Of a stretch of DNA of 64,000 bases, positions 20,981 to 60,393 are shown in pieces. Positions within the stretch are counted from its first letter, which is position 1, and the number at the start of each line of letters is the position of its first letter. The notes beneath the pieces are model-generated. The model was given only the letters and a program-made list of their open reading frames with translations. It was not told the DNA's origin and searched no databases. The stretch comes from Nemertoderma westbladi. Lineage: Eukaryota; Animalia; Xenacoelomorpha. The stretch covers positions 67,997 through 131,996 of the forward strand of contig JAUCBJ010002497.1 in NCBI GenBank assembly GCA_032718475.1. Reading direction: 5' to 3'. The position numbers were made by a program, and so were the translations under genes.

Positions 20981-21777
20981 TTTTACTGAACTACGGTTCG
21001 GTAGGACTAAAGTTATTTGAAAATTCTGTATTTTGAGGTAAAAGTTTATATTTGATTAGCTAAGTGCTAATTTTTTGAAATAAAATTTTGATTTGAACCG
21101 CGTGTAAAATATTTTGGAATTGAATACCGGTGTTTAAAAAGGGTTTAAATACCATATTGTACCGGTACAAAATTTTCGTAAAAGTAAAACTTAACTCTTT
21201 TGTTTTTCAGGATTCAGAGCTCATTTCTAGACTGTAACGAGAGCAAGACCGTGTTTAGCAAGTTTCCGAGATAGATAACTCAACAACTTTGGTTGGGAAA
21301 ATCGCACTTCGTCCGCAACGCTGGAAACGGAAAGGTTCACGTCCGGTTTGTATCTGGGAATCTGTTTTTCTGGAGAATCATTGGAGGGGGTGAGTTCGAA
21401 AAGTTGCATAAATAAGTTAGGCATTACCGTATTAGTTAAAATTATTGTGGGTTCCACTGTCTCAAGTATTTATGCATTCCGTACGATTTCTTTGTTTATT
21501 GCTGAATTAGTCCGTATTATTGTATTTAATTTACCTTTTGATAACGTATATCGTTTCTGATTTATTTGTTATAAAATTGGCCGGTAGGCTAATTTTATTA
21601 TATACTTATTCCGTGACATTTATTTGCTGTAAAATTGGCCGCTAGGCTAATTTTATCCATCTGCTATAAAATCGGCCGGTAGGCTAATTTTATATGACTG
21701 TAATTAATACCGTTTTGATACAAATACGGTAAGTTTGATACTTTGACACTCACTTTACTTGACTTACAACTACCGAA

Positions 21778-24700
21778 ATGAGTGACAAACAAGACTATAC
21801 GAAGAATACACAAACCGACTATGACTCATGTAACGCGGATAAGTCAGAAGCGGAAGAACCACAGGGGAAGACTCGTGAGCCTACCGAACCTACACCGTGC
21901 GCGTCACCAGTACATCCAACGGGAGTACCGGATGCCGTAGTACGAGGCGACGGCAGGACCGAGGATTTTCTAACGGTCCCGCAACCTAGATATAGGGAAA
22001 CGGACATGGTAAGTTCAGTAGGAAGCCAGGAAAGCGTTGTTAGAAGCGTCGGAGGTTACATGGCGCATATTACTAGGAGTATTGGAGAAGGCCAACGCAT
22101 ATTAGACGAGTTGACCGCTCCGATGTCTCGATTCGAGTTCTACACTCTACAGGTGAGAGTACAAAGCAGAGTACATAAGTCCGTAGATAATCTAATTGGT
22201 CTACAAGATCTAGCTAGACAGAGACAGGATATGGACACACAGTTTAGAATCCTCGAGAAATTAATGATCGCTAGAGAGAAACTGATTCAGTTTAAGACGA
22301 CCGTTAGACAGATACAACAGGAACAAGCAGACCAGTTGCTAGGTGAGTCGGTTTCCGACGAGTTATTACAGCCCGAGGAAGAACAGGAACTGTACCGACT
22401 GGATGGACAATTGAAACATCTGACGGATCACTTACGTATGTGCGGCGAAGACGTCGGCGATTTGGAAACCGTGCCGGAATATACGAGGGGAACTTCACCC
22501 GTACAAATCGAATCGGCACCGGAAATACTGGACCAATCGTTAGTGAGTATTCGCAGCGAAATTGGCGAGGTAAGTATAGTGACGTCAGAAATTTCTAGAC
22601 AGCAACAACAGTACCACAGACAACAACGAGAAATGGAAGAACAAACTCAATTGTTAACTGTACAAGCAGCTGTAGAGGAAGAGAAGCTACGCGTTGCAAA
22701 TGTTGCGAGAATTTCTCATCTGCAAGAACAAGCCGAGTTGGAAGCGGCTGAGATGGAAAGGTTGGAGCTAGAAATAGCACAAAGAACAGCAGCAGCGGAG
22801 TTAGCGCAACGAGCGGCAGCAGCCGAGTTGGAACGACAAGCGGCAGCGGCTGAGTTGGAACGACAAGTGGCAGCAGCGGAGTTAGACAAACAAAGGCGAG
22901 TTTCGGAAGCCCGAGCCGAGTTGAAAAAACGACAAATAAAGGCTCAATCAGCTATACGACAAGCGGAGTTCGAGGCGCAACAACAACAGACGGAACAACG
23001 TGAGAAGGAAGTTAAACTTCATTTCGAACTCGAAAGGAAGGCGAGAGAACTAGCCGAAGCCAAGGAAAATCTGGATCTTCTAGCCCGCGATCGATCGATG
23101 AGATCTCGTGACGGACATGATTTGGACCAGATAGAGGTAAGGCACCGTCAAATTCAGGAACGAATGAAGGAAGGAAGTGTAGGGGCACCTGGGCGAGAAA
23201 GACAATTAGTTAAAGACTTATGTCAAAGATTCCCTCAAGTAACTCCTATGTTTGCACCAGTTACGACTAAGGAACCTGTTTCGATTGCGGGTAGTAGTAA
23301 TATTTCTCCTATCCATTGTGCGACGGAACACAGGTTTGTTATTCCGGACAAGTTCATACCGCCAAGAGCAACACCGTCGCCTATTCTGAAAGTCAAGGTA
23401 AGTAACCCACCGATTACCGATCGTAGTAGTTTATTGCCCGGACCTGCACTACTAACGACAAAACAGGTGAGTCCACCTTCGACACCAAAACCCGTTACGC
23501 ACTACACATACCCAATGACGTTTAGGCCTACAAGGCCTTTAGATTCAAACGCTGTCACTCGACCACCGGTTCAGTTTACATCGCAATCTACGACTTCGAG
23601 GAAGACCTGCGAGCCTACCGAACAATGGAGACCAGTGGATACGCGACCGTTTAATCAGTTTACATCGCAATCTACGACTTCGAGGAAGACCTGCGAGCCT
23701 ACCGAACAACGGAGACCAGTGGATACGCGACCGTTTAATCAGTTTACATCGCAATCTACGACTTCGTGGAAGACCTGAGAGCCTACCGAACAATGGAGAC
23801 CAGTGGATACGCGACCGTTTAATCAGTTTACATCGCAATCTACGACTTTGAGGAAGACCTGCGAGCCTACCGAACAACGGAGACCAGTGGATACGCGACC
23901 GTTTAATCAGTTTACATCGCAATCTACGACTTCGAGGAAGACCTGCGAGCCTACCGAACAACGGAGACCAGTGGATACGCGACCGTTTAATCAGTTTACA
24001 TCGCAATCTACGACTTCGAGGAAGACCTGCGAGCCTACCGAACAACGGAGACCAGTGGATGATGTTCCGAAGCGGAACGTTAGAATTCGGACGACGCAAC
24101 GGACACGAGCACGTCGACCACCGTATCCAGGTGACAGTAGTACTTCAAGCGAGTCGGATTACCCGAAACGCGAGGTATTTAGAACAGGAGCGGCCGACGA
24201 ATGTAAACGTGAGCGTTCAGATAATTTATTTATCGATAATCCTCCACAAAATACACCAATACAAAGGGCGTTACAACCAACGGATGCGATCAGTACTCAA
24301 CAATTTGCCGACATTCTGAGACCAGTTGTCAACAAGTTGGCCCAGATCGAGGAACGCTTGGAGGAAGTTCACACCGACAGTTCGAGAAACACCGAATTCG
24401 AACACTCTAGACACCCGAACATTCAGCAAAGACCGACACCTTTGAGGAACACCTCGAATCAAAGAAAAGCGCCAAGAAGAGAGAACATCAACCAGGTTGC
24501 CAACCCAGGACGCGAAACTTTGAACGTTGCCGAGGAAATAGCGAAATTCGCAGCTAGACAAGGACTACCGGTGCAACAACCACCTAAGTTTTCCAGTAAC
24601 TCTAAACATTGGCACACTTTTGTAGACTACATTGAATCTCAGATTGCTGTGTGTGCTTTTACATCGAGAGAAAAATTCAACTACCTGTTACAAACGCTGA

Positions 24701-27396
24701 CGGGAGAACTGAAACGTCTAGCGGAGACTTTTGTCGGTGTACCAGATGCCTTCGAATTAGCGTACGATCGCTTAACATCGATTTACGGAGGCACCGTAAG
24801 TATGGCTAAGTCAGTGATAGAAGAACTCTGTAAGGGGGGGGCTATTACAAAACCCGTTGACTTACTGAAATTGGCTGACGAGATTAAAAACGCCATTACT
24901 ACACTACGCTCAATTGGACAACTTGACTACGCAAACACTCCTACAGTCCTATTGAAAATAATAGGAAGATTGCACCATCGACTTCGTCGGGAGTGGCGAA
25001 AAATCGAATATCAGCGAGAAGAACGAGGTGGATTCTTGAAGTTGGAAGATGTCTACTTATTGATATCCAGAGAGGCAGTAGTGGAGACTCGTTCGAACTA
25101 CACGGACCAACACATCGTAGCAGAAGGAATCACCCTACCGTCATCAAACAGACAGAAACCACCAATGACATCCACAAAGACGGTCACCTACGCTACACCG
25201 ACCGAAACCCGACAATTTTCAGACGGTAGTAAAGTGTCTGCACCTATAGGGACCAAACAGACCAGACAACAACTAACTGCCGACTTCAGCGGTTGCCAAT
25301 ATTGCGAACGGATTGGTAAGCGACATACTAGCCACAACTTAAGGGGATGTCGACTATTCCGTGAATTAAACTCAGAGGAACGACGGCTTCAAATAAGACC
25401 GTTAGATTCTTGTTGGCGGTGTACGCAACATGGACATGTCCGTAAGGACTGCCCAAATACAGACACCTGTCCTTACTGTGGACGCAACCATGACGGTCTG
25501 CGCCACATGGACAGTCATACGCCGACCAAACGCTTCATAAGGGAACACCCGGAAGCTGCAGCAAAATGCAATAGTGCATACAAAACACGCGAATCGAGAA
25601 CAACACCAACATTCGTGACGCATATTAGGGATTGCTTCTCAGAACAATCCGGATCATCAGATGAAGAGTCGGAAGACGACGACGTTTATTTCGGTACTGG
25701 GGACGAACAACCATCGATTGCACTTCTGACGCCTGATCAACTAAAGGGGTTTAGTGTAATTCCCGTTAAGATTACAGGCACAAAGGGGAGCAAAAGGATC
25801 TACGCTATCCTAGATTCAGCCTCATCTCACAGCTACGTAGATGAGAAGGTAGCTGATGTCGTCACAGATCTCAGACAAGGTAAGCACATAAAGTACACTG
25901 TAAGTAGTATGCATGGACAACATGCAATACCAGTGACACGAGTTAAGTTAAACTTGGACACCCTTCTTCCGAAATCGCAACATAGCGAAAAGGAGAGGTC
26001 TTTGTTACCCTTTAAGGATTTGACTTTTGCGGCCACCAAGGACTTTAGTAACCTACTGGGTCCAGTGCCGGAACAATCCCTAGATGACCGTAAGTATTTC
26101 AGACACCTCGGTGTACCTGAATGTCCTGTCAACTATAGGTCGGTAGCAATGCTGATCGGGACGGACCAATTCAACCTACATCAAGTGTGGGAAACCAGAC
26201 CATCGGTAGTCGTAGCGGGAAACGTTTACGCCTGTAGAACTCCGATAGGGTGGTATACTCGAGCGCCTGTGCGCACACTGGATATAAGTGATGAGGAAGA
26301 CGATGTACAAAGTACATGTAGTTTACTAACTACAACTTCGATTCATTCCTTTTCACCTGACATAGACTATACTACACTACGTTCGACAAAACACGACAAC
26401 GTTACAGGTACGACGTGTGTAGCAAATACGATAAGTCACAAAGAGCAGCCAATCCACAAGGTTAGTATAGAGCGTGAGAAGAAGACGAGTCAGGCAGAGG
26501 TTCCATCGACGACAGATGATAACGCCGGAAGGCTTGCGAGTCTATCTACACCAATAACTTTAATGATGCCCGTCGATATCGATGTTGACACATTAAAGAA
26601 TTGTCAAGTGGAACAAGCTGAACTAGACAAAGAGTTAACAGAGAAAACTATCAGGTGGTTAGAACAAGATACAGCAGAACCCGGTAGTTACGAACCGTGT
26701 ATGTCGGAACAAGAGAAACAATCTTTGAAGATCATGGAAGATACTATCTGCCAGACGAAAGACGGACATTATGAGGTAGGGATGCTATGGCGTAACCAAC
26801 GTCCTAAACTTACAAATAACTATCCGCTAGCCTTACGACGCTTACACTCAATACGACAACGTTTATTGAAGGACGAGAAAGCCCATCTGCAGTATAATAC
26901 TCAGATGGAGACGTATTTGACTAAAGGATACGCTATCAGGATGACAAACCCAGAGATTATGACAGACCAGACATACTATTTGCCACATCACTACGTGAGA
27001 CACCCCGACAAACCTGATAAAGTACGCGTAGTTAACGACTGCGCGGCCCTGTTTGAAGGAATGTCTCTCAACAGTGAGTTGATGGATGGACCAAACATGA
27101 ATAATTATCTCATGGGGGTGATTATGCGCTTCCGTCAGCGCCAAGTAGCATTTACTTGTGACGTAGAAGTGATGTTTCACCAAGTGCGAGCGTTAGAGCG
27201 AGACAGAGACAGTTTGAGGTTCCTCTGGTACCCGGATGGAGACTTAAGTCAACCACCGGCGACTTACCAAATGCAAGTTCGCGTTTTCGGTGCCAGGGAC
27301 AGCCCAAACTGCACTATGTACGCCCTAAAACAGACTGCTAGGGATCAGAAACATATGTATGACCCAGAGGTAATCCAGATCGTTACAGAGTTGTGA
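21778..27396 (+). pseudogene. gag-pol: Element C gag-protease-RT (N-terminal part); one frame with a nonsense codon at 23776-23778
   Basis: Coiled-coil N-terminus; BEL-type Cys/His cluster (CQYC..H..C, CWRCTQHGHVRKDC, CPYCGRNH...H); protease ILDSAS; RT motifs YLPHH, KVRVVNDC, SLNSELMDGP, DVEVMFHQV, FGARDSP. Confidence 0.93.
23569..24060 (+). repeat. 84-bp in-frame tandem repeat in the gag of C, about 6 copies
   Basis: Encodes (QFTSQSTTSRKTCEPTEQRRPVDTRPFN)n. Confidence 0.95.
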
Positions 27397-30300
27397 CACA
27401 GTAGAAAGTGCTATAACAGTAACACATCAATTACGGGACTGTTTAGCAGGCGGAGGTTTTAACCTCACTAAGTTTGCCTCAAACAGCACTGAATTGGTAA
27501 ATTCATTCGAAACGACTGAACGTGGGGGTGGGGACATTGACTTAGAGTTCGAACCACTGCCGACGACCAAGGTGTTGGGACTATTTTGGGACCCGAACAC
27601 AGACAACTTTCGAGTGAAAGTAAAACTGGACGCTGAAGGAGATTCTCTGACAAAGAGGTCTTGCTTGTCGAAACTAAGCAGACTGTTCGACCCTTTAGGT
27701 TTCATCAGCCCAATAATACTGCAAGCAAGAATATATATGCGCAGTATTTGGAAAGATGGACTGACATGGGACGAACCGATCTCATCCGAACAAGTGGACT
27801 TATGGAAGACTTGGGAGGCGCAATTATCTTCGCTAGAGGATTATTCCATACCCCGGGTGTACTTTCCATTACAGACGACATTTCCTGACAACTTAGAATT
27901 ACATTGTTTTTCCGACGCCAGTGACAACGGCTTTGGTGTGACAGCGTACTTGCGCAGACAAGTAGACTCAGACGAGTTTGATATTTCGCTCATTACTTCT
28001 AAGGCTAAAACAATGCCTACTAAGTATATGACGACACCACGCGCTGAGCTACAAGCCGCAACTCTGTCAACGACCATTGTAAACCTCATACAGACGGAAC
28101 TACAGTCAAGTTTACAGATATTTTATTGGACTGACGCGACGTTAGTTTTATTTTATATAAACAACGACACACTTGAATTCAAGACATTCGTAGCTAACCG
28201 TCGTGCAGAAATTCTAGACCGTTCAATAAAGGAAGATTGGCGACATTGTCCCGGACCACAAAATCCAGCCGATATTGCGTCACGAGGAATGATGCCTGAG
28301 GAATTCTGTAAACCGGAAAACAAGAAATTTTGGCAACACGGACCACAATTCTTACAAAGAGCAACACAACATTGGCCGCCACTTTATGATAACAAGTTTA
28401 ATACTATTCCTAAGGACGCCGAAATTAAAAAACCAAAGAAAGGTAAAGCGAAGAAAAAGACAACGGCGAAACTTAAGAAGAAACCAAAGGCGAAATGGAA
28501 GAATATAACTCACAAAGTTAGGGCAGGAAGACTTGCGAGCCTTTCTCAACCAGACGTATCGCCAGACGGTCAACCAGACATGTTACCAGACGGTCAACCA
28601 GACGTATCGCCAGACGGTCAACCAGACACGTTACCAGACGGTCAACCAGATGTATCGCCAGACGGTCAACCAGACACGTTATTAGACGATCAACCAGACA
28701 TTTTGCCAGACGTGTCACTAGACGTTTTGCCGGATGTTCCGCGAAACATTTTACCAGACATTAGTAACGTAGCGACACATAGTAAAGCCGCAATTTCCCT
28801 ATTGGAGCGGCCTTCTATTGACAAACTACCAAACTTGACACCCTTGAGTAACCATAAGTACATTGAAACCTCATGTATTACAGATGTGGGTAGTACCTAC
28901 GCTAATGTAAATACAGGTGTTACTTTACGCTCAAGAGACATACCAAACTTACAACCTACGGTGAGACCTGGGATTAATATCGGCAGAAAAACAAATTTAC
29001 CGAAACCCAGTGATCCCATAGAGTTAAAACCACCATTAGGGATCGACGCACAAAGTACTGACAATCAAGGTAAGAAGACGAAGAAGGACAAATTACTTGT
29101 AGACCCGGACGGATCAACAGTCAACAAGGGAATACCTACCGGCGGACTCGTGGGCCCATCTAGTAAAACAAAACCTTCCAAATTCTCCATTGACTTACCT
29201 GATGACGTCACAAATACTTACGTCGACCGTATTGTAAACCTAACAGATTCTTGGACCAACGCGTGCCGAAAATTAGCGTGGATTGTACGTTTTGTACAGT
29301 ACGTTAAAGGCAAACGCGACTTTACACGTTGACTCACATTGACTGAGATTGACAGATGTGAAATTAAATTAATTTGCCATTATCAATTGCGATATTTCGC
29401 GCGCGAATTCACATCTATAAGTCAAGGTCAACCAATCAAGTCGTCACCAATATTGAGTTGGAGTCCGATTATTTATAATGGCTTAATTTGTCATAAATCT
29501 CGGCTTCAAAAATTGACTTTAATACTGGTTTTAGGTACCCAATAATAATACCGCAACATCACGAATTACAACGTGCAATGATACTGGACACACATTTACA
29601 TCTGAAACACGCTGGAAGACACCACTGTCTTTCCTACTTACGTACAAGATTTGTATTAATTAGACCCAGTAAAGCGTTAAGTTCAGTGACGCGTATGTGT
29701 ATTATTTGTAAAAAGGTACATTCTAGAATAAGTACCCAAGAAATGAGTGAACTTCCACAAGCACGACTACAGGCATTCAGACCACCTTTCACAGAGACTG
29801 GAATTGACTGCTTTGGTCCCATACATACGAAACGTGGACGTATACTAGTGAAACGCTGGGGACTGATTTTCACATGCATGTCCAGTAGGGCAGTTCATAT
29901 TGAACGTGTGATGGATCTTTCCACCAACGCCTTTATACTAGCATTGCGGCGATTTATCGCTAGACGCGGACTAGTAAAATGCTTGTACTCAGATCAAGGT
30001 ACAAACTTTGTTGGTGCTCGAAATGAAATTGCTAGAGCCTTTAAGAAATTAGATCATGATCAAATCTCAAACGAACTACGTCCTTACAAGATTGTTTGGA
30101 AGTTTAATCCTCCAGATAGTCCATGGAGAGGCGGAGTCTGGGAGAGATTGATTAGATCTATAAAAACAGCCATGGCAAAAGTAATTCCAGTAAACCACAT
30201 CTTGACAGACGACCAACTGACAACATTGTTTGTTGAAATCGAGGCAATACTAAATACTAGACCAATAGTATTAGTACCCGATGACAAACAATCCCAGTTT

Positions 30301-30729
30301 GCTTTAACACCGGCACACCTGCTTATGCAGGCACCGACCACATTAACGCCTATTTCTATTCCAATAGAAAGCGATAGCTACGGTAGAAAAGCGTGGAAAA
30401 TCACGCAACTACTGGCTAACAAATTCTGGGAAATATGGCAAAATCACTATTTGCCCTCTATTTCTGCCAGAACTACCTGGTACAACAAAACTCGCGCTTT
30501 AAGAGTGGGAGATCATGTGCTGTTGGCAGAAGTGAATCTAAAAAAACGCTTCTGGATAACAGGTGTAATTTTAGACACACATCCATCTATGGATGGAGTG
30601 ATAAGAACTGTGACTGTACGGACAATTGACGGTCGTACAGTAGACAGACCGACACAACGTCTCGTACTTCTTGAAGAGAAGCGAAACAAGTCTGGAGATT
30701 ACAAGTCTCCAACAAATGTTAGTAAATAG
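27390..30729 (+). pseudogene. pol: Element C RT C-terminus, RNase H and DDE integrase
   Basis: GGFNLTKFASN, KVLGLFWD, FDPLGFISP, LHCFSDAS, PRAELQAA, WTDA, NPADIASRG; integrase HLHLKHAG...CIIC, GIDCFGP, SDQGTNF, GGVWERLI. Stop at 29330-29332 and frameshift near 29520. Confidence 0.93.
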
Positions 30730-31388
30730 TAAGGAGTTTACAAATAGATTTCCACGTACCTGTACACCGTAGTAAGGACAGCGGTAGAATTCCATTGTCT
30801 TTATATGTGAACATTGATGGTAGTACCCTTATGTGTCACATAGGAGCGGGATTTGTAGGTATAAGAAATGGAATTCTACTTGGAACTCACAATATTGAGA
30901 CATTTTCGAAATTTTAGACAATCCATTTGGATTTGAAAAATTTTAAAATTTTCTCCAGTGAATAGATTTCAGGGTACAGTCGGGTGGATCTTAAAATTAG
31001 AGAAACAAGAAAGGAAGACTCGCGAGCCTTTCTTAAATTTTAATTAAATTTTACACGGTCTTGTTTCAATAAGTTACGTCGAATAATAGACTTCCCTATA
31101 TTTATTACTAACTCTTGATTGCTTATTTTCTGATAATAGTTTGGGATCAAAAAGTGAGTATTTTAGACTCACAGCCAGTTTAGCCCAAATTCGTTTTTAT
31201 TTCGGCAAAAAATTTTAGATAAGAAGCAGCGTGTCATTAAAGAAACTCTAGATCTTAGGCTATGGGTAGGAGGTTAGAGCGTTGTCGAGCCAAAAGGGCA
31301 GACGAAAACTCTCACATCTCCTCACAACTAACAATAAACTCTGTTGTATTCCCTCTAGTAGTATGATTATGTAACCATACCTCTAATA

Positions 31389-32160
31389 ATGGCGAAGGGG
31401 ATACAAGGAGAGCCGAGATGGGGATATGATATCCAAGAGGAAGCAGCAGCGCCATTCGAACGATTTGGAACTAAGGATTACACTATATTTGGAATAAAGG
31501 ATTTATCAGAAAGTATAGCGAAACTCGCAAAGACCAAATATGACTCAAATGTATTAAAGAGAAGGCAAAATGCGTTAAATGAAAAAATCGAAAGTTTACG
31601 TAAAACCTTCAATGAACTTTACCCGTACGACGCTTTATGTGATACGGGAGATATTAGCAAAGATCCCGATACCGAAATTAGTCGTTTGTATCATACTATG
31701 CAATACCTAAAGGCACATGAACCTATGCCCGCGGTACGCGATGAATTCGATGGAATGCATCTTTACAGACGAACTCGAGGGGACGATAGAGAAACAAAGG
31801 AAGCATTTTCAGTTTATAAACTTTATTATCAATGCGGTGCTTGTATGCGCGAACAACGAAATGCGATTTCGATGCGTTTAAATAAGGAAAATCCCGAACC
31901 GATATTGGTGAGGTGTTCGAACCATCAACAACTACGCTACCAGGAAGGAGGGTATCCTTTATCGAATCCATATCATTCATTCGCTATGACTGGACCAAAG
32001 GCGGGAGAAATTGTCGTTTACCCACCTAAGGTTGTTGAACCCGATGTATTCGAACTTACGCTGGACGAGGCGACTCAGTCAACCCGCGAAAAGAAAGAAG
32101 CTCTTAGCCTATACAGAGCCTACAAGGCTTTCGAGAAAGGCGAGATGGAAGAATGGGGCG
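31389..32160 (+). CDS. Element C accessory ORF3, N-terminal part (interrupted by element B)
   Basis: Removing B and one GGGCG TSD gives ...EEWGG RLASLPYHWTSHDQTSAKE MTPEVF..., in frame with the 963-aa ORF. Confidence 0.88.
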
Positions 32161-33373
32161 TGTAAAAGCCTTTGCTGAATTGCCCCGTTTTTTATATTAT
32201 CTTTTACATTAAAATACTCTGTAGTTGATTTAATAAGTGTAAGAGACCGTATTATTGCTGTATCGGTGTTTTTAGAGGATCTAAGACCTATTTCCTCCGT
32301 ATGTGTACTGTGAAAGGCATATTTTATGATTCTATGGCAATTCGTGACGCAAAGGGGTGATAGCTACTCTTGAACAGTAGTTACTATGACTACGGTTAAC
32401 AGCTGACATTCATACGTGTTGATTTCCTTTGTTCTACGGCGTCTCTCAGTTCAGTCAGCCAATGAGAGCGTTTTTGTGGCTCCTTGTACAGAAAATTTCC
32501 GAGAAATGACGCAATGCCTATGTGCAGTGTTTACATTCAGTCTTGAGCCAAAGAAAGAACGGCTTGGAAGTATTTTGTGCTGTACTGCTTTTTAGTCGTA
32601 CACTAGTAGGTTTAATTATAAAGGGCATATATCCTTTAACAAACTGACTACTTGAATATCTCATGCCTATATCTCATTGCTGACATACCGGTACTGACTT
32701 GTTGTTTTATACTGCTATTTGCTGTCAGTTCTTCATAATATGGTTGATGAATAATTATATTTGGAATAACGATAAATAACCCCGCAACCCAATATTCTTG
32801 ATATACCTAAGGTAAGAGAGAAAGGTTACCAATAACGATTGTGACTTATGTTAAAGTGGTTTGAAGTGAATCTAATGTTATTTGATAGACCCTACATGAG
32901 TCAGCCTGTGTTCCTTTTATATGTGACTAAAATCATTGAAGATTGGCAGATTAGTGTGCAGTATTGTGCAGCATAGTGTATGAGTGAGTCTGTTAAAGAA
33001 GCAATTCCTAAAGAATGCGCCATATATGTGAATTAATTAAGCCATATCGTTGTGAGTAGTTTAAGTCATAACTCTGTTTATGTAGATAAAGCGCCACGTC
33101 CTAAAGGAACTGTTAATATTACCGAAGGTGAATAATATTGTCAGAGATTATATAGTACTGTCAGTCGAATAATACATTAGGCTTACATAGCAATAAAAAT
33201 TAAACCGTCGAACCCAATCTCCCGGGAATATCCAGCGGGTGAATGGTCGCGCACGGATTGGTTTCGACTAGTGTAGTGAATCAAATACTTGTCATAGACT
33301 AAAAAGCGATTTATTATCTAGAAGACATTCTAATTTGGCGGGTTAAACTGCCAAAGGTCTGAAAGCGCGAACA
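32161..33373 (+). repeat. 5' LTR of element B (1213 bp)
   Basis: Matches 45062-46278. Confidence 0.97.
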
Positions 33374-33385
33374 TTAAAGGATATA
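33374..33385 (+). promoter_or_regulatory. Non-tRNA primer-binding site of B, complementary to its own LTR at 32628-32639
   Basis: TTAAAGGATATA is the exact reverse complement of TATATCCTTTAA. Confidence 0.85.
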
Positions 33386-38709: not shown

Positions 38710-41122
38710 TAGGGTGGAGTGAAAAAAAAATTTTTCTTTATTTTTAAGGGAAGCACTATTTTTCTGATGCCAAATCGGTCTAAACTATCTTTGCAAAAAA
38801 AAATTTTTGATTTCGAAAAATTCTAAGCGGGCCTCACGACACTTGAAAATTTCAAATTTTTGAAAAGGCAATGCCAGTTTTGAAAATCCCAGATATTTTG
38901 TATTTTTGATAAAGGTAAGGGAAGATGCAAATATTTAATGTCAAATAGGTAGGAAACAAAAACAAAATGTGAAATTGTGATTTTTATATAAATCTACCCC
39001 AGCCTCATGGCCATTAAAATTTTGCAAAATTTGCCAAATTTCACCCTTAAAATACAGCAAACCTACTTTGTAGTCTCTATAGTTGAAATCGATTTACTAC
39101 TGGGGTTTGGAGTTCTTCCTGAGTGAAAACCAAGTCCCCTGATTTGATTACTACTATATTTTAATACTAGAAACCCAGCTAGCTGGCTGTGAATTTACCT
39201 TTGGATCAAATTCCCAATAAGTATATTATAAACAACAGTACTGTAGGTATAGGAAGAAGGATAATTCTAAATTACGAAAACACTAGTAAAACAGTAAAGC
39301 AATAGAAAAACAGATGAGAAACACTGTAATGCACCAGGAAAAAGTAAAAATATTGATCAACAGGAAATTTAATACATGTATTACACTGAATTGGTATTCT
39401 TAAATGTACTCCTCGCATAGCACACCATTAAGTAATCTCCGTAAAACATAGGGACAACTATAAACTGTCCAGAAAACAGTGAAAACATGATTGGCATTAA
39501 ATAGCATTAAATTTTACCTAATATACTGCTAAAAAATAAGTTGACAGTGTCTAATACTACACAGAAACCATTGTTGCCCGGCAACCAAGGAACAGTAACC
39601 AATCAGCATGCATTTCAACAGTTTTACTGGTCAGCCGGTAGAGGCACATTAATGGTGTATTCTGGTATTAGTGTATTCCAGTATTCAAGTATTGTTAGTG
39701 TTGGATCTTGTCATCTGCTAAATGTTGAACAGTTAAAGTGCAGATGTTGCGGTATTTAATATTAAGACAGCAAAAGGGCCACAGTTAGGTCCTACCTACA
39801 GAGATACCGTAGTGAAGTGGCATACCAGTGTGGCTAGAAGCGCGGATGCAAGATCTAGAACACATCACACATGATGTTCTAGTCAGTTCGGTTTTCTGGT
39901 ATGAATGGTATCCTTAATAATAAATACCACAACTTCTGCACTTCAACTGCCAACATTTAGCAGATGAATTGATCTAACACTAACAATACTGGAATACACT
40001 ATGTAATTCCAGAATACAGCAACACAGGTACTACTGGCTGACCAGTAAAACAAGGATAGTGCTGAAATGCATGCTGATTGATTTCTTCTTTCACCTAGTA
40101 TTATTAGCAGCATATCAAGCAAACAGTTGAGGCGACCCGAAGGCTCCTCTTTCGATAGATGCTACCGAGGGTAGGGGTGGGCACTACTATTATCCCAAGA
40201 TTTGCTCCTAGTTATTTAACTGGTACTCAATTTATCGACCCCAGTGGATGAAAGGCGACTGAGTGGACCCTGGTGGGGCTGAACCTACAACCAATCGATT
40301 GCAGGCCTGGTGCTCAGCCAATTGAGCTACCCCGCTTTCTAGCGAAATATAGGTAAAATTTCACAGTTGTCCAGAGGGTTTATAGTGTTTTCCCTATGTT
40401 TTACGGAGATTACTTAACGTGTGCTATGCGAGGAGTACATTTAAGATTGCCAATTCAGTGTAATCGATGTATTAAATTTCCTGTTGATCAATAATTGTAA
40501 TGTTTTTCATATGTTTTTCTAGTGCTTTACTGTTTTACTAGTGTTTTCCTAATTTAGAATTATCCTTCTTCCTAGACCTAGGCCTACTGTTGTTTATAAT
40601 ATACTTTATTGGGAATTTGATCCAAAGGCAAATTCACAGCCAGCTAGCTGGGTTTCTAGTATTGAAATATAGTTGTGATCAAATCAGGGGACTTGGTTTT
40701 CACTCAGGAAGAACTCCAAATCACAGTAAATCGATTTCAACTATAGAGACTACGAAGTAGGTTTGCTGTATTTCTAGGGCTAAATTTGGCAAATTTTGCA
40801 AAATTCTAAACGCCATGAGGCTGGCAGGGCTGGGGTAGATTTATATGAAAATCACAATTTCACATTTTATGTTTGTTTCCAACCTATTTGACATTAAATA
40901 TTTGCATCTTCCTTAACTTTTATCAAAAATACAAAATATCTAAGAAATTCAAAACTGGCAGTGCCATCCCAAAAATTTGAAATTTTCAAGTGTCGTGAGG
41001 CCCGCTTAGAATTTTTCAAAATCAAAAATTTTTTTTTGCAATGTTAGTTTAGACCGATTTGGCATCAGAAAAATAGTGCTTCCCTTAAAAATAAAGAAAA
41101 TTTTTTTTTTCACTCCACCCTA
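38710..41122. mobile_element. Non-autonomous hAT-type (hATm-like) foldback element
   Basis: Termini TAGGGTGGAGTGAAAA and TTTTCACTCCACCCTA; 8-bp TSD CTGATTAC (38702-38709, 41123-41130); arms of about 1 kb, nearly palindromic around ~39850. Confidence 0.93.
40117..40336 (-). mobile_element. tRNA-derived SINE with Nin/Deu-like central domain
   Basis: Head GCGGGGTAGCTCAATTGG...GGTTCAGCCCC; core ACTCAG..CCTTTCATCC...GGGGTCGATAAATTGAGTACCAG; absent from the opposite arm of the foldback. Confidence 0.8.
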
Positions 41123-43697
41123 CTGATTACCCTGGAGTGCAAATACTCATCGGCCAAAACGCGCATGAGGCGCTGGAGACATTAGAGAAACGGCCTGCTC
41201 AACCGCAGCCCCTACAGACCTATGCGGTAAGAACTAGAGTAGGTTGGTACCTTACTGGACCTTCCCGTAGAACGCTCAGGGAAAGACTGCTTCAAGATCG
41301 CGTCTGCCAGGTGAGTGAATGGGAAGATGATACTAGTGAGGGAGACGACCCAACTGAGGGAACACCACACTCCTCAGATAATGACAATCTTAGCTCCAAT
41401 GTAGATCAATGGAGATATTGCCCCAAGAAGTTTAATCCAACGGACATCGCTTCCAGAGGAGCAACTCCTCAAGAACTGACAGATACTATAGACCGGTTAG
41501 GTGAACCCGACTTCCTGAGTAAGGAGAATGAATGGCCTCCCCATCTTACTCCGACTGAGATTAGACCAGCCAAGGGAGCGGAGAAAGTCGAACCTGAAAC
41601 CCGGACGGGTGGATCGGAGTTATTTGAACCCGGGATAGATCTGTCGGTATTACATGTTGCCAGGGACGACGCCGTGGATCTGGGCCTCCCCTCCGCGAGT
41701 GGATCCTTCATGAAGATCAGAGAGAGCGATTGGAGCTCTGGAACATCAGACGTCTCGCAGGGACTCTCACCTCTCCTGCAGAGAGCGACGGACCACTATA
41801 GCTCCTGGAATCGGCTTTGTGACGCCGTCATATACTTTGAGCGATGTTTCTATCGTCACTATTCCAGGACGAAGAGGAAACCTGGAATTGTATTCAGGAT
41901 GCAGCGACTCAATCACCCAGTCGGTCGTTTGTGTTTATCGGAAGGGAATGGAGGACTCTCCGGAAACTGTGGAAGGCAAGATTCTCTTCCCACGACCACC
42001 TCCCTAATCCTTCAAACATCTAGGGACTCCATAACGTAACAACATACGGAGTGGGTGTGTGACTCTATTATTTTATATTATTTTATTATTTTTATATTTA
42101 TGTATGTATTACTATGTAATTCTATTATAATCGTTTTCTTTAATTTTATTCAGTAGAATGTTATTTTAGCGATTATTTAGTAGATTAGTGCAATATATAT
42201 TCGCGTTTATTACTTAATTACGTATATATTATATTTAATGCGACGGCAAGAAATAATTCTTTTCCTTCTTCCTTACTGTCCGTATTACATTACAAATACG
42301 TAACTACAGTAAGATGAAATGTCCGTACTTATTAAAGTACGATAAAGCCACTACTATATTCAAGTATTATTGGTAGGCAGAGTATTAGGAATGCAAAGTT
42401 CAGATCCTCGTGTCTCGGCTAAACCAAGCTCTGGGTAGACCTTGGAAACGACTTGCCTCTTCACACTGACATTGCTTCGTGCGATATTGCTCTCATACCG
42501 TATATTAAATAATACATATAGTAGCGTGATGTCCCTTTAACAGTAGCGTATAACGCAAAATAAATCTGTTAAACCCTTTGACCATCTGTAATTCTAGTCG
42601 ATTAAGATATCGCGGCACCCACCGATATACTTGAAAGACAAATTCTAGAATCAGTGGTTAACGTCCCCAGACAAGTTCTGGAATAAATCGGTGCCCATCT
42701 CAAATATTAATTAATTAATATTTGCAAAATCTAATAAATCAAAATCTGTAAAATTCAGATCCTTCAATAATTCTAGTCAATTAAGATATCGTAGTATTTA
42801 CCGATATTCTTAAAAAGACAATTGTCATAGAATTAAGGATCTTGTGTCCCCAGACATGTTCTGGAATCCAAATATGTCCATTTAATTATCAAATAATAAA
42901 ATTTCAGGGAATCAATTTAAATTCATGCCTTTTAATGAATTTAATAAATTGCCATTTTTACGCAATTTATAAAGTTCCCAAAATTCCATTAATTAATAGA
43001 TCAAGGGAGCGGAGATTTATCTTAGCATGCGTATGAGTGTACGAAAGTCTCCCAAACATAGTCAATAGCCGATAAAATTCATAAAGTCATGTATAAAACA
43101 GAACATTGACTATTAAAGAATTACTATTAAATAACATCCCAGATCTGTATGCATTGGAATCACCCTAATTCTACCGCTAGCTTTGCATAATGTCACCATA
43201 GCAACAACCACGCTAGAATTAGAATTGAGTTAAAAGAACAATAGAAAGCTTGTCCCATTGAATAGCATAGGGAATAAATAGCGCACTACTAGTATCCAAG
43301 GATACATAATAATACAGTGACATTCTGGAAGGCATTGACTAACGGACAAGTGACCCGAGTGTGTGTAATTTGTGACAAGTTGTGTGTGTGGTACTTGTGA
43401 GCTTATAGGCGAATGTTACTACTAAGGTGTGTTTACAGTAGCAAGTCGCAATCGTAAAGTAACCTAACTCTCCAAGGAAAACCTGAAGTACATCTAAGCC
43501 TTTGGGACGGACAGTTGAGTGACTTGTGCCGGTTGTCGTTGTCGTTGTGCGGCTACGTCGTTGGCGAAAGTACAGCGGCGACGACACATCGGCGCTGAGG
43601 ATCTCGTACTGTCCGGGGGTTAATTGGAGTAGGCAGCGACGCCCGCTCGCCTAAATGTGGACTCATTATAATATGGACAAACTCATATATAGCAGAT

Positions 43698-44950
43698 ATG
43701 ACGGAGTTGATAGAAGATGGTCTTGGTATCGGGGAGCGATATACTCTACTTTTGCAAGCGTTTGTTGATAGCTTAATACGCGGCGACGTTAGTCCAACTG
43801 CTGCGGAGGACGATGGTCGTTATATCGAACCGCCAAGGTCCCAAGAGCAGCTCACGCGTGAGTTGGACTATAGAAAATTCGCTGCTCGATATACGCAGCG
43901 TAATGGTACGTATATGGGCTTCTTAACTACTGGTCATCCTATCGATTTACACAATACGGACTATGTCGACTATATATCCTGCCCAGCGGAGTCGGAACCA
44001 TAAACTGAAATTCGAATGCGAAAATTCTATTCGAAATCGACTCGAAAGAAAAGACACTAAAGAAACAAATGGACGCGGTAACTCCAACGTATATTTGGAA
44101 TTCTTGATAGAAGCATTGTAACAACAAATAAATATCACCCGCGTTTACCTTACCAGACGTGCGTCTTTGGTATTATTACGATAAATGCCCTAGACCCAAC
44201 TAATAAACGGAAAGACATAAACATCCACGTAAACCGAAACTTGTTGACGTATCACCTATGCTCACTCGGCTCGAACGATCCTGGAGTAAACCTACGATCA
44301 GAGTCCCGGAATACTCGGTCAAACCTCCTCATTCCTTAGTTGGACCTCAGACCTGCGATCTTGGTGGTGTCGCGGATCCTCGCGGACTGTATTCACTGTT
44401 CAAAGATCTAGTGCTACCCTAACAATTAATCGGTAACACTCCGACAGTGATTTCTAGCTAGCCGCCCATCTTACCTAGCCGGATTGTGACGCGGACACCT
44501 AATATCACTACCCAACCGTATGGTCGTCCACGTTTAACGCGATACAACCCCTCATCAAGGTGAAGGAGAGCATTGTACGAAACGAGTTAAACGCTATTTT
44601 ATAAAGATCAAAAAGGAAACCTGCGTTTGTTCAGATAAACGTAAGTTATAACAGTGAGTCCAATCGATACACGAATTGGCCTTATCTCAATTCGATTGGG
44701 AAATCCAGAATCTCTAAGAAGTTATCGAACTTGGACAATCCTATTCTCTGCGAGAGTTTTTGGATGAACGTATCCAGCTACGAGCGGAGGAAAATCAGCT
44801 CGAGGAGAAGCATATCGAAACGGCAGATACTTCGACCACAATCCTACACCTTCTGATGCAATCATATTGCACCCTTCACCCAGGAGTTATGGCCCTCCTA
44901 GTAAAGTGGCTCCCCCCAAAGAGAAAAGGACTCTTGCTAGCCTCAAAAAA
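43698..44950 (+). pseudogene. Degenerate accessory ORF of element B, homologous to 15100-16412
   Basis: MTELIEDGLGI...DDGRYIEPP.SQEQLTRELDYRKF; downstream AEENQLEEKHIE. Confidence 0.6.
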
Positions 44951-45061
44951 CTGCGTAAACGCCGTCTGCGTAAGAAAGACTAACTGTTTAGAGTATCTTT
45001 ATGTTTTAGAAACTGTGATTTTTATATTTTATAGACTGAAAATCCCATTTTCTGGGAGCGG

Positions 45062-46278
45062 TGTAAAAGCCTTTGCTGAATTGCCCCGTTTTTTATATTA
45101 TCTTTTACATTAAAATACTCTGTAGTTGATTTAATAAGTGTAAGAGACCGTATTATTGCTGTATCGGTGTTTTTAGAGGATCTAAGACCTATTTCCTCCG
45201 TATGTGTACTGTGAAAGGCATATTTTATGATTCTATGGCAATTCGTGACGCAAAGGGGTGATAGCTACTCTTGAACAGTAGTTACTATGACTACGGTTAA
45301 CAGCTGACATTCATACGTGTTGATTTCCTTTGTTCTACGGCGTCTCTCAGTTCAGTCAGCCAATGAGAGCGTTTTTGTGGCTCCTTGTACAGAAAATTTC
45401 CGAGAAATGACGCAATGCCTATGTGCAGTGTTTACATTCAGTCTTGAGCCAAAGAAAGAACGGCTTGGAAGTATTTTGTGCTGTACTGCTTTTTAGTCGT
45501 ACACTAGTAGGTTTAATTATAAAGGGCATATATCCTTTAACAAACTGACTACTTGAATATCTCATGCCTATATCTCATTGCTGACATACCGGTACTGACT
45601 TGTTGTTTTATACTGCTATTTGCTGTCAGTTCTTCATAATATGGTTGATGAATAATTATATTTGGAATAACGATAAATAACCCCGCAACCCAATATTCTT
45701 GATATACCTAAGGTAAGAGAGAAAGAAAGGTTACCAATAACGATTGTGACTTATGTTAAAGTGGTTTGAAGTGAATCTAATGTTATTTGATAGACCCTAC
45801 ATGAGTCAGCCTGTGTTCCTTTTATATGTGACTAAAATCATTGAAGATTGGCAGATTAGTGTGCAGTATTGTGCAGCATAGTGTATGCGTGAGTCTGTTA
45901 AAGAAGCAATTCCTAAAGAATGCGCCATATATGTGAATTAATTAAGCCATATCGTTGTGAGTAGTTTAAGTCATAACTCTGTTTATGTAGATAAAGCGCC
46001 ACGTCCTAAAGGAACTGTTAATATTACCGAAGGTGAATAATATTGTCAGAGATTATATAGTACTGTCAGTCGAATAATACATTAGGCTTACATAGCAATA
46101 AAAATTAAACCGTCGAACCCAATCTCCCGGGAATATCCAGCGGGTGAATGGTCGCGCACGGATTGGTTTCGACTAGTGTAGTGAATCAAATACTTGTCAT
46201 AGACTAAAAAGCGATTTATTATCTAGAAGACATTCTAATTTGGCGGGTTAAACTGCCAAAGGTCTGAAAGCGCGAACA
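45062..46278 (+). repeat. 3' LTR of element B (1217 bp)
   Basis: Matches 32161-33373. Confidence 0.97.
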
Positions 46279-46283
46279 GGGCG

Positions 46284-49234
46284 GAAGACTCGCGAGCCTA
46301 CCTTACCATTGGACGTCACACGATCAAACTTCAGCTAAGGAGATGACACCGGAAGTTTTCGAGAGTATAAACTTTGCTCAAAACGTTATTCAGAGACTAC
46401 AGATTGCATCCCTGGAAAGGACAAGAGAAATGCAACCGTATAGTACTTCAACTACGAAACCATTGAGTACGACACTCAATTTCCCTATTAGTATACCAGT
46501 TCGACAAGATACAACGTATGAAATACCTATTGTGGATCATCCGGAAATCATTTCGAACTTAGAGTTTCTTCCTGCAGTTGTTCTAAGCGATATGGTTAAG
46601 ATATATGATTTACGTAGACATATTACGCAAAAGGTCGTGCATAATGTTCCGCCTCATATTCAAGACTTTAGGGAACTGGATAGAGCTGGCGCTGATATAG
46701 CTCCGAGTAACCTGAAAGGATATTTAACCAAAACAATTCGCTTATGGATTGGAACAGGAACCTTTGAGTCGGATACAGATATCGCTGCGGACTGGCAAGG
46801 TAAAGTCATTCGTTTCGAGGACGAGAAAGACATAGAGAAGATTTGGCAACCTTCGGAAGAATTATTGGACGAATGGAATAGGACGTTTAGATCGTTTCAG
46901 GAAAACGGTTACATGTTTTATGATAACGAGGGCGGCAGCCATCAGCAGAGTCTAACCTCCAAGACTATACAAATTAGAGCGGCAGACGGAGTTTTGCACA
47001 TTTTCAGTAGACAAAGGAGCGACAAGCGAATGCCAATACCTCCAGGAACTACAAAGCGGCACCATTTCATCACAAATATAGTAAAGAAAATGGACCAGGC
47101 TTGCAATATCGATGCTAAAATGTTACCAAAGACGGTGAGAAATATGATTTTAGATAAAACTGTTGTAAAGATTGGATCAGGAGTAAGAGAGGACTTAATT
47201 AGCGACTTCGCCGGCATTTCGGACAGTGACGACCGATTACCGACACCTTACGTCGACACTCGACCTCTTATACTGTGGTCTATAGAACAAGGATACTTTC
47301 GTGAGTATGATACTCAGAAAACCGGAACTGGATATATTTCCTACTTGATGTTTAATTGGGATTACAAGGAAAGTAAAAGAACAAAGTATATCGAAACGTA
47401 TGGAGAAGGTGATACTCCAGATATAAATGAGTTTGAATCACAGCTCAAATGGAGAGGATGCGTATATTGGGCTATTACTTCACCTCCAAGAGCCATACTA
47501 CAATATTATTTAGCGATAGAGTCATCAGTGAATGTTTGCTTAGTCGCCGACATTGTGTCTCGGACTCTTAAAAGACATCCACTTTGCCTCGGAGAAGATC
47601 ATACATTCCACGCGGAAGGGAGAATTCATACCGATGTGTTTAGATGGTTTCTCGAACCCTTCTACAATTCCGACGCTCAGTGTAATGCCTTCACTCGAGC
47701 AGGATTCAGTATATTTCGAGACGTGTATCTTCGCTGTGCGGGATCTCTTATCGAAAGACCATCTATGTTTACATTGTTACCCTATGAAGGAGAACGTATC
47801 ATGGAGCTTACTGACGAATCACGGCAGACGCGTGCGCCTATCGGTCACTTAGGTGATGATTTCGAAGTAACGACGGCCATCGATGATCCTTTAGAGGAAC
47901 TTCTTGAGATTGAAAGGAACCTCCCGAAGAAATCTCAGGCGGAGATTCGACAACTAGAAGCAACAGATGCTGTAGTTTGCATACAACCTTCTGAAACATA
48001 CCAACCTATCGACCCAGACGATTATGACTATAGTGTGGGAGGAAGCGCTCGACCCATTGGCGATCTTATATATGAGCGAGTGTGGTACCCTGCTAATACG
48101 ATGTGTGGTAAATGTGGCGTCGCTGGACATCATTCAACAAAGTGCAGTGGAAAGCACATTACTACGACTCAACTGATTTGTGGGTGGTGTGGAGATCAAG
48201 GGTCCCATACATTTTATACTTGCTGGAGATTTATGGCTCAATGCACATATTGCAATATAAAGGGACATCGAGCATCTGAATGCCAACTGAGAGACATACC
48301 TTACGAACACGAATCTGTAAAACTCGTGCGAAAACTATTTGATGAGTGGGAAGATTTGGCTGACGAACATGTAGCAGCGCAAAGAAGACGGTTCCCGATG
48401 AGAGCGCATCTTGGATTTTGGGTGGTAAATCCTCAAACTATGATGTCGGAAGGATATATCTCCGCTATGCCGCAATATGACGAACTCATCGAGGTAGTTG
48501 ATATTTTGCCTCACGATAGTGGATTCCGAGTTGTGCGCGAATATTTGTTACAGATACACCCTGACAATAAGAATACATGGAATTTCCAGAAAGTCGTTAA
48601 TCGTATCACCTATGGTGAATTTGATCGGTTCCGAACGGAAAAGCGGAACAAGGGAGCTTGGTTAACCGTTGCATGGGCGTACCGAGCCGCGTTCTACCAT
48701 AAACGTATACGAGCGAGCGTATTCGAGGAAGAGGAGGTCCTAGAGGCGAACAACATACCAGCTACTCCGGTCGCGCCATCTGCACGTCACCCTCGGGAGG
48801 ACGGACAGCACAAGATCATACGGGTCCAGAAAGTGGGCCAACAGTTAAAGAAAACTATCAACGTTGAAGAACGAAGGGGATACGAACCGACTATTCGAAT
48901 TACTCGGGATACGGTTTCGCTTCCCAGAGAACCGCAAGGAGGATCGGGACATATACCAGCTGATCAAAAGGGGGCGCAAGCTTCTCTTGGGTCTGCGTCG
49001 TCCGCTTCTCGCGCGTTCCCAGACGTTTTACCAGCGGTAGATACAACAGATCGGTCACGAGGGATTGGACGAGGATTTGGGATAACTAAGAGACGAATAT
49101 GTGAGGAAATGGTCGTACCATCTCCCAACGTCCAAAGTAATCCAGTGGCTCGCCCCACAAGTCCCATATCACGAGCTAAATCGCCGATACGCAGTTTTCG
49201 AGGACGCGGCAGGGCTCGATCCGCTAAGCGTTAA
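46284..49234 (+). CDS. Element C ORF3, C-terminal part: DEDDy/RNase D-like 3'-5' exonuclease, three CCHC knuckles, basic tail
   Basis: ExoI-like FYDNEG, TIQI, LPKTVRNMILDKTVVKIGSGVREDL (ExoII-like), YVDT, ExoIII-like YLAIE; knuckles CGKCGVAGHHSTKC, CGWCGDQGSHTFYTC, CTYCNIKGHRASEC; Arg/Ser-rich end. Confidence 0.75.
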
Positions 49235-49369
49235 AGCGGGAAGGAAGGAGTGGACGGAAGACTCGTGAGCCTTTCTTATGAATTGTTTGTTTTATGTATT
49301 GTTTTATGCATTGTTTAGGTAAATCAAATTGTTTATGTAAATTGAATTATTTATGTAATTTGTATTGTT

Positions 49370-49880
49370 TAAAATTTATATTGCTCTAAATTTATACAAT
49401 TTATATTGTTCTAAATTTATGCAATTTATATTATTCTAAATTTATGCAATTTACATTGTTCTAAATTTATGTATTTGTATTGTTCCGAACTTATGAAACT
49501 TAGAAAGTTTATATTTAGAAGGAACTTATATTTGAAAGATTTATATTTCATATTTGAGATGCAAAGAGTTTATATTATTCTAAGCTTATGCAGTATTATT
49601 CTAAGCTTATGCAGTATTATTCTAAGCTTATGCAGTATTATTCTAAGCTTATGCAGTATTATTCTAAACTTATGCAATTTAGTAAAGATTTATATTTAGA
49701 AAGTGCTATATTTGTAGTCATTCCAAACTTACGCAATTTATTGTTTCGAATATTATGCAATTTATATTTTGTAAAGAAGCAGTATTTGTATTTACAGTAA
49801 ATAGAAGGCAAGAGCAGACGGAAGACTTGTGAGCCTTTCTTGTGATTTATTTTGAACTTATGCAATTTGTTTTATATTTA
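49370..49880 (+). repeat. AT-rich 22-28-bp tandem repeats in the 3' UTR of C
   Basis: (TATTATTCTAAGCTTATGCAG-type)n and (ATTGTTCTAAATTTATGCAATTT-type)n. Confidence 0.7.
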
Positions 49881-59950: not shown

Positions 59951-60393
59951 AGTCACTACTACTAACTGTAGGGACATTTCGCTACTATTAATACCTTAAA
60001 ATTTTGAATTGTTGATTATTATTTATATGCCTCAAATTTGCAGAATACCAACAAAGACATGGAAATGATAGACCTAGCTATGGTGATTCACGCGGGAGAG
60101 GTTGTACAGATATTATATTCGCTCTACTGTTTCTAGTCGGGGTCCTATCGTATTTCGGTGTTATATTCTTTGCTTACGCCGTTGGAAATCCAATTAGACA
60201 GTTCTATCCAACTAATTCAGAGGTTTGCCATAAATACATATAATATGCGAATGATAAAAAGATCATAACCATGTAAAGTAGGCCTACTTTGCAACTGGCT
60301 TTAATGCTACATAAGCCTATTTTGAACTGTAACATGCGCTTTTGACTCTGGTTTATTGTTTTGGTTGGAATAATATAACCTCGTCACGTTGAC

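Follow-up and report, generated by a model that had tools for sequence, protein, structure and literature searches.

Why does one sequence of 20 nucleotides (nt) recur, nearly unchanged, along the internal region of a long terminal repeat (LTR) retrotransposon, in coding and non-coding DNA alike, and what might read it? The question is raised by a stretch of 64,000 nt from the xenacoelomorph Nemertoderma westbladi (GenBank assembly GCA_032718475.1, contig JAUCBJ010002497.1, positions 67,997 to 131,996), hereafter the window, which holds three nested LTR elements: element C lies inside element A, and element B inside C. A first-pass annotation, made from the letters alone, had noticed the motif in C and read it as a set of packaging or protein-binding signals. 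Here we refine the inventory of copies, describe their pairing and retention in the family, and weigh the molecules and proteins that could be involved. Judged by sequence comparison, the motif is a real, selected cis-element of an unusual BEL/Pao element, and private to its family within the scope of the 64-kb window. That it is a binding site on the element's own RNA for the element's own CCHC knuckle protein is the explanation to which we give an even chance.

Results

Ten sites dispersed through the internal region of element C

The pattern GGAAGRCYYGHGAGYCTWYC has 13 exact matches on the + strand of the window, at every one of the coordinates first listed for it (21866, 23600, 23684, 23768, 23852, 23936, 24020, 26527, 28526, 31013, 46283, 49256 and 49820). 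It matched in none of 100 shuffled sequences; none of the 13 is expected by chance, which was accordingly rejected as the source of the copies. With one to three mismatches, twelve of these sites can be read on the - strand too, in the same position. The motif is a quasi-palindrome, so "sense strand" denotes the best-fitting orientation. Six copies (23600 to 24020) are units of one 84-bp tandem array, so that the 13 exact copies, although real, amount to eight independent exact sites. The array accounts for those six copies only, and a mere tandem repeat was rejected as an explanation of the motif. Across the eight exact sites 13 of 20 positions are invariant.

Two degenerate copies complete the set of ten sites used below. 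A search allowing three mismatches recovered a site at 47823, missed in the first pass, which has the best score (20.9) after the exact sites on a position weight matrix (PWM) built from the eight independent exact sites (0.005 expected per 15 kb). The copy at 29141, already recognized as degenerate, is second (16.3; 0.025 expected per 15 kb). Further candidates score at most 9.5, and the weak sites at 27804, 29614 and 18101 were dropped as within chance (0.2 to 0.75 expected per 15 kb).

All ten sites fall within the internal region of C, about one per 1.5 kb, separated by gaps of 0.3 kb to, at the largest, 2.9 kb; by the coefficient of variation of the gaps the spacing is more even than random for the ten sites (P = 0.025), with P = 0.068 for the eight. 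Scans of the window by PWM and by mismatch found no copy in C's LTRs or in A and B, as first described, nor in the flanks. In a search for dispersed 16-mers the motif was the top family in C, with 11 loose sites; A, B and the LTRs reached at most three to four.

Seven of the ten sites are coding, in two reading frames, and all lie on the + strand. The first (21866..21885) is in the N-terminal low-complexity region of gag and reads in the KTREPT frame. It is followed by the gag array (23571..24060; 5.8 units of 84 bp, each with one motif), in which the unit at 23768 contains an in-frame stop. Further copies occupy the linker before the reverse transcriptase (26527..26546, GRLASL frame) and the linker between RNase H and integrase (28526..28545), with the degenerate copy at 29141..29160 beyond. 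A non-coding copy (31013..31032) lies between pol and the third open reading frame (ORF), ORF3. Within ORF3 one copy (46283..46302) stands upstream of an exonuclease-like domain, and the degenerate copy at 47823..47842 is in the linker before the knuckles, in a KTREPT-type frame. The last two are non-coding, at 49256..49275, 22 nt past the ORF3 stop, and at 49820..49839, in the 3' untranslated region. The peptide readings given at the outset (KTREPT/KTCEPT and GRLASL) and the three non-coding sites are as described then, and the use of two frames together with non-coding copies places the constraint on nucleotides, as proposed; constraint on the peptide was rejected on the same grounds. The motif peptides occur in none of 123 homologous proteins, relatives that are at most 40% identical.

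The flanks of 49256 and 49820 are identical at 14 of 30 and 15 of 30 positions, against a background 95th percentile of 12, but are AT-rich; these two sites may share an old duplication. Other tandem arrays begin directly behind motif copies, a 24-bp array after 28526 (28546-28731) and AT-rich arrays after 49256 (49287-49676).

Substitutions keep the pairing and the loop

The 20-mer had been folded by the first-pass annotation into a hairpin, and its pairs can be followed through the substitutions among the ten sites. Pairs 1-20, 5-16 and 7-14 are invariant, and 2-19 alternates between G-C and G-U. Pair 4-17 shows one double change, from A-U to G-C, at 29141; pair 8-13 occurs as U-A, as G-C (the double change at 47823), as U-G (at 29141) and as one mismatch, a C.A shared by all six tandem copies. 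Pair 3-18 is mostly unpaired. Pair 6-15 is A.C at nine sites and Watson-Crick at none; at 26527 alone both partners differ, giving G-U, as had been observed. The covariation score was reached by 12 of 500 shuffles. In both degenerate copies every scored pair is kept, for which random decay gives P of 0.07-0.11 in one and 0.03-0.06 in the other, and because 47823 was unknown when the pairing was proposed, it serves as an out-of-sample test.

The loop, N-G-N-G or more narrowly YGHG, has G at its positions 2 and 4 in all ten sites. Its variation is one-sided: C is replaced nine times at motif positions 9 and 11, and their mirror G's never change (P = 0.004; 7:0 over the eight sites, P = 0.016), an imbalance unexpected if a symmetric dimer bound the DNA. 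CpG decay was rejected as the cause, since the change is one-sided and C is not depleted of CpG (observed/expected 1.17). Kept pairing and invariant loop G's fit a single-stranded hairpin with an N-G-N-G loop, and for that reason we favor such a hairpin as the molecule concerned.

These features also bear on whether the motif might be a reverse-transcription feature or a near-neutral scar, a mark of module junctions where synthesis pauses or switches template, or of additional sites of plus-strand priming, spread by template jumping. Suited to this are the borders that copies form with nearly all protein domains, the purine-rich upstream flanks at six of ten sites (at least 0.75 over 12 nt) and the even spacing. 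The motif is, however, unlike C's own 3' purine tract, tolerance of its codons accounts for the location in linkers, and the kept pairing and invariant loop G's are left unaccounted for. Direct repeats favor deletion during reverse transcription, so that keeping ten copies needs selection. We regard an origin of this kind as very improbable.

Candidate readers: Gag knuckles and ORF3

Element C encodes six CCHC zinc knuckles; Gag and the 3' piece of ORF3 have three each. The 5' piece of ORF3 (31362..32165, + strand) has no significant family match and is broken by element B; the 3' piece (46283..49234, + strand) contains the exonuclease-like domain (about residues 170-430), an acidic linker, the three knuckles (608-667) and a basic tail. 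Among 1.84 billion protein representatives the 3' piece has three matches, one to the knuckles only and two, P0122 and P0123, of the same architecture, each a single-member cluster. ORF3 and these two appear to form a small family with a likely DEDD exonuclease, a triple CCHC and a conserved helix after the knuckles. DEDDy or RNase D-like enzymes carry the motifs ExoI (D-x-E), ExoII (D) and ExoIII (Y-x-x-x-D/E); the three sequences align acidic residues in DEDD-like spacing plus the ExoIII tyrosine. A profile of the three matched human EXD2 in the exonuclease-like region (E = 0.008) and Trypanosoma brucei RNase D (TbRND) in the knuckles only (E = 0.004), the exonuclease part of the latter scoring -1.7 bits. 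Word searches with ORF3 gave no match. That ORF3 carries a DEDD-type 3'-5' exonuclease domain is likely, not firm, because it has no Pfam exonuclease match and its structure models are unusable (predicted local distance difference test, pLDDT, 31 and 33). A search of the open-licence PMC and bioRxiv literature, judged by listings, showed no BEL/Pao element with such an additional ORF.

A likely splice acceptor for ORF3 (31328..31358, + strand), read by eye as CTAAC, a pyrimidine tract and AG, precedes an ATG at 31389; it was not matched by a strict acceptor-pattern search. A donor-like GTAAGT at 21729 was likewise seen by eye. This arrangement suggests a spliced ORF3 message, which would retain the four of ten motif sites downstream of the acceptor. 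An AATAAA at 31333-31338 follows the branch-like CTAAC and precedes the acceptor-like AG.

Two considerations slightly favor ORF3 over the Gag nucleocapsid as reader. Neither A nor B has an ORF3-like region, and neither has the motif; and since a spliced ORF3 message would keep four sites, the motif would discriminate poorly between RNAs for packaging. A host RNA-binding protein, such as an export, localization or anti-termination factor, would be served equally well by the RNA-level evidence, and hairpins read by host proteins are familiar in retroelement RNAs, as in the localization signal of the I-factor and in constitutive transport elements. Yet A and B, BEL elements in the same host, do not carry the motif, nor do the flanks, and a family-private code of 20 nt suits a private reader; among the explanations weighed here, a host reader receives our least credence.

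Retention of the motif in the C family

Parts of C are contained in five of seven listed sequencing runs, from four studies. The segment 24070-32155 matches 8213 contigs in run X1 and 4061 in run X3, many of them 90-95% identical, so that the C family is both multi-copy and diverse. A diverged contig found in X1 and X3 aligns to 28344, skips 181 nt, aligns again from 28526, the first base of the motif, to 28555, and then skips 169 nt; the 28526 copy is thus kept as a 30-nt island. In another diverged contig the motif is still present where the gag array ends, and seven of the next 36 letters differ (by eye; about 80% alike). These contigs show that the motif is retained in diverged members while the surrounding linkers drift, although the evidence on rate is weak. 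For 24070-32155 as a whole, 40 of 1151 variants are listed, too few to establish that the motif is free of variation.

Elsewhere, viral contigs contained neither the motif nor relatives. Fifty metagenome loci have one exact match each; none is related to C by tblastn or blastn, and one of the 50 has a second weak site. We rejected these single sites as relatives of C and read them as chance. The restriction to C and to one orientation that the first pass had supposed is upheld within the window, and the motif persists in diverged members of the family.

Which strand, and which molecule

Several observations weigh against a sense-strand RNA hairpin read by the element's own knuckles. Sense 30-mers fold no better than shuffled sequences at nine of nine sites (z from -0.82 to +0.83). 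Sense 20-mers reach 0 to -3.4 kcal/mol, with the antisense lower at nine of ten sites; in a context of 60 nt on either side the sense hairpin reaches 0.15 at two of ten sites, and the antisense hairpin 0.15 at eight and 0.4 at three. The energy model credits no A.C pairs, and the A.C at 6-15 (nine of ten sites) and the C.A at 8-13 of the tandem copies both become G-U on the antisense strand. The count of pairs with double changes is not significant (equalled in 128 of 500 shuffles), and one micro-inversion could account for the swap of pair 6-15 at 26527, a change that is silent in its frame. Nor is the 26527 motif depleted of variable positions overall: among contigs from X1 and X3 on 26447-26626 (X4 and X5 having none there, and variants below 2% being unlisted), two of 20 motif positions vary against 14 of 160 flank positions, and the two, 11 and 19, are both positions that already vary between sites (P = 0.11 for such placement). 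The exonuclease call for ORF3 rests on the EXD2 match and a three-sequence alignment. Finally, single orientation and growth by tandem duplication are shared by motifs bound as double-stranded DNA (dsDNA), those of VANDAL21 and VANC, as described in passages of PMC5735166. Of the fold first proposed, then, the pairing holds, covariation and the new copy at 47823 included, but the hairpin is weak as sense RNA. Pairing is supported by substitutions and not by energy, and the strand is one that we infer.

The folding results raise the alternative that the hairpin forms on the opposite strand, in antisense transcripts (for example precursors of silencing RNAs) or in minus-strand DNA while reverse transcription proceeds, and that it may direct the ORF3 nuclease to them. 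It would explain the better folding of antisense 20-mers, more often predicted in context too, and the conversion of both A.C and C.A to G-U. Against it, the 26527 copy does not fold on that strand (0 kcal/mol), yet no variant at position 6 or 15 is listed among family contigs; 29141 breaks pair 8-13, and pair 2-19 is mismatched at seven of ten sites. The invariant loop bases would moreover be C's, whereas knuckle pockets take G (passages of PMC7599994). We consider this quite unlikely.

A double-stranded site has more in its favor than poor hairpin prediction. The motif would then be an asymmetric palindrome to which a protein, either element-encoded (VANC-like) or of the host, binds all along the integrated element, keeping an 18.7-kb unit unsilenced or fully transcribed, and its quasi-palindromic form agrees with this. 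Element B, moreover, landed at the 5' boundary of the 46283 copy, its target-site duplication (TSD; 32156-32160 and 46279-46283) ending on the first G of the motif. A landing there has a chance of about 2%, computed post hoc for one event; it is the outcome that tethering to a bound site could give, a hint from that single case of insertion next to such a site. The mirror positions, however, are strictly asymmetric (9:0), and each degenerate copy has a symmetric double change, which pairing would explain more readily than base reading. The LTR, with its promoter, is free of copies, which alone is not significant; domain and profile searches found no DNA-binding domain in ORF3, and CpG is not depleted. 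We rate a dsDNA site as unlikely, if still worth keeping in view.

Element C and the elements around it

Without B, element C is 18,746 bp (18.7 kb), which is unusually long. Its LTRs (19133..20969 and 50165..52001, + strand; 1837 bp each, both motif-free) are 98.9% identical with 20 substitutions, and the 5' LTR is associated with a 5-bp TSD, TTTAT. The LTRs end in TA...TA instead of TG...CA. By eye, no TGG-type primer-binding site was seen behind the 5' LTR of C (20969), nor is there one behind that of B, and priming of both may be non-standard. A tRNA-like stretch with words resembling A and B boxes was also seen by eye in the C LTRs (about 19260-19335, and in the 3' LTR); ARAGORN and Rfam call nothing there. 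In the whole window ARAGORN gave no match and Rfam none at gathering score, a 20-mer being short for such a test.

The gag-pol region of C (21763..30729, + strand) is in four pieces (21763-23778, 23779-27396, 27374-29332 and 29497-30729) and encodes DUF1759, the three Gag knuckles, Peptidase_A17 (E = 1e-42), reverse transcriptase/RNase H and an integrase with DUF5641, in the BEL-type order protease, reverse transcriptase, RNase H, integrase. All 120 homologues listed, of 483, carry PF05380 and are 32-40% identical to C. By these sequence features C is a BEL/Pao LTR retrotransposon, present here as a broken copy, with gag-pol fragmented and ORF3 interrupted. A GGAGCGG tract at about 30843, directly after pol, resembles the 3' purine tract of C and is perhaps a relic or an internal plus-strand primer predating the acquisition of ORF3.

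Element B (32161..46278, + strand; LTRs 32161-33373 and 45062-46278; TSD GGGCG) has a BEL-type gag and is motif-free; it contains an internal inverted repeat of 800 bp (38696-39484 and 40359-41136). A (13871-57403) is related to B, at about 80-89% identity; both are BEL-type elements with gag but no reverse transcriptase or integrase match, and are possibly non-autonomous. What they have in common with C is confined to a distant gag and scraps of pol, and neither has an ORF3-like match. A separate reverse transcriptase ORF at 60374-62564 (RVT_1, E = 2e-27), with an upstream ORF, is probably a non-LTR element.

Discussion

If the motif is bound on the element's own RNA by its own knuckle protein, the sense 20-mer would fold into a weak, protein-stabilized hairpin; the prediction is that CCHC knuckles of ORF3 or of the Gag nucleocapsid grip its two loop G's. 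Sites every 1.5 kb or so would let the reader coat a transcript of about 17 kb along its length. With ORF3 as reader the transcript would be marked as self, for protection or routing; with Gag, it would be condensed into particles. Copies would multiply by tandem duplication and survive only where seven codons are tolerated, in linkers, or in non-coding DNA.

Comparison with known systems helps to define the motif. In single-stranded RNA viruses and hepatitis B virus, multiple dispersed stem-loops within coding RNA share a recognition motif and act as packaging signals, their spacing being important (passages of PMC6281560). The ten sites of C resemble these as many small putative stem-loops spread over one RNA and inside coding sequence. 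They differ in that viral signals vary around a short motif, whereas here 13 of 20 positions are fixed in eight exact sites, in that the host is an LTR retrotransposon, and in the four sites that would also be present in a spliced ORF3 message. The specific role in packaging first inferred is therefore doubtful. Confinement of the psi type, to unspliced RNA and near the 5' end, is not seen either: the leader has no copy, and four of ten sites lie 3' of the likely acceptor. In human immunodeficiency virus type 1 (HIV-1), the nucleocapsid binds the G's that occupy positions 2 and 4 of the tetraloops of stem-loops SL2 and SL3 (passages of PMC7599994). C shares with it the G's at those positions of a predicted tetraloop and the encoding of CCHC knuckle proteins in cis; in contrast to C, retroviruses have their sites gathered in the 5' leader, without repeating one 20-mer, and C's YGHG loop would sit on a weak stem with an A.C or G-U pair.

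VANDAL21, a DNA transposon with an accessory ORF, VANC21, has a family-private, non-palindromic dsDNA motif of 9 bp, mainly in non-coding sequence (passages of PMC5735166). Alike in C are a private motif (in the window), one orientation, tandem amplification and the accessory ORF; unlike it, the C motif is 20 nt long and self-complementary, with seven of ten sites coding. The layout thus resembles that of dispersed packaging signals or of VANC targets by analogy, and we claim membership in neither class. Extra ORFs after pol with a putative RNase D-like domain, as in C, are described in passages on the bdelloid LTR retrotransposons Juno and Vesta, whose DEDDy exonuclease ORF3 has no demonstrated activity or target (PMC5408684), and on Terminons, which also carry hammerhead ribozymes (PMC6431247). 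Those elements belong to other lineages, the passages cited report neither a triple-knuckle ORF3 nor a dispersed 20-mer, and, unlike Terminons, the window around C has no Rfam family match. TbRND (PDB 7C42), a cellular enzyme for U-rich single-stranded ends, derives its RNA binding from its knuckles (passages of PMC7797062). It shares with ORF3 the order of a DEDD exonuclease, likely in ORF3, followed by CCHC fingers, but since the match is confined to the knuckles, it indicates a common architecture and not demonstrated homology. Searches of the open-licence PMC and bioRxiv literature, judged by listings, turned up no near-identical 20-mer dispersed through an LTR retrotransposon.

The selection, compaction and protection of very long LTR retrotransposon RNAs have been little studied outside a few models. 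Element C brings together six candidate reader knuckles and a precise candidate target of 20 nt, so that short oligonucleotides and small protein domains would suffice to test binding. A narrower and rather doubtful possibility is self-recognition at the RNA level, in which an RNase D-like, triple-knuckle ORF3 would read a private 20-nt hairpin code spread over the entire element and either protect or route its own RNA or destroy antisense silencing precursors. If true, this would be an RNA counterpart of VANDAL/VANC anti-silencing and would give the DEDD accessory ORFs of retroelements their first cis-target.

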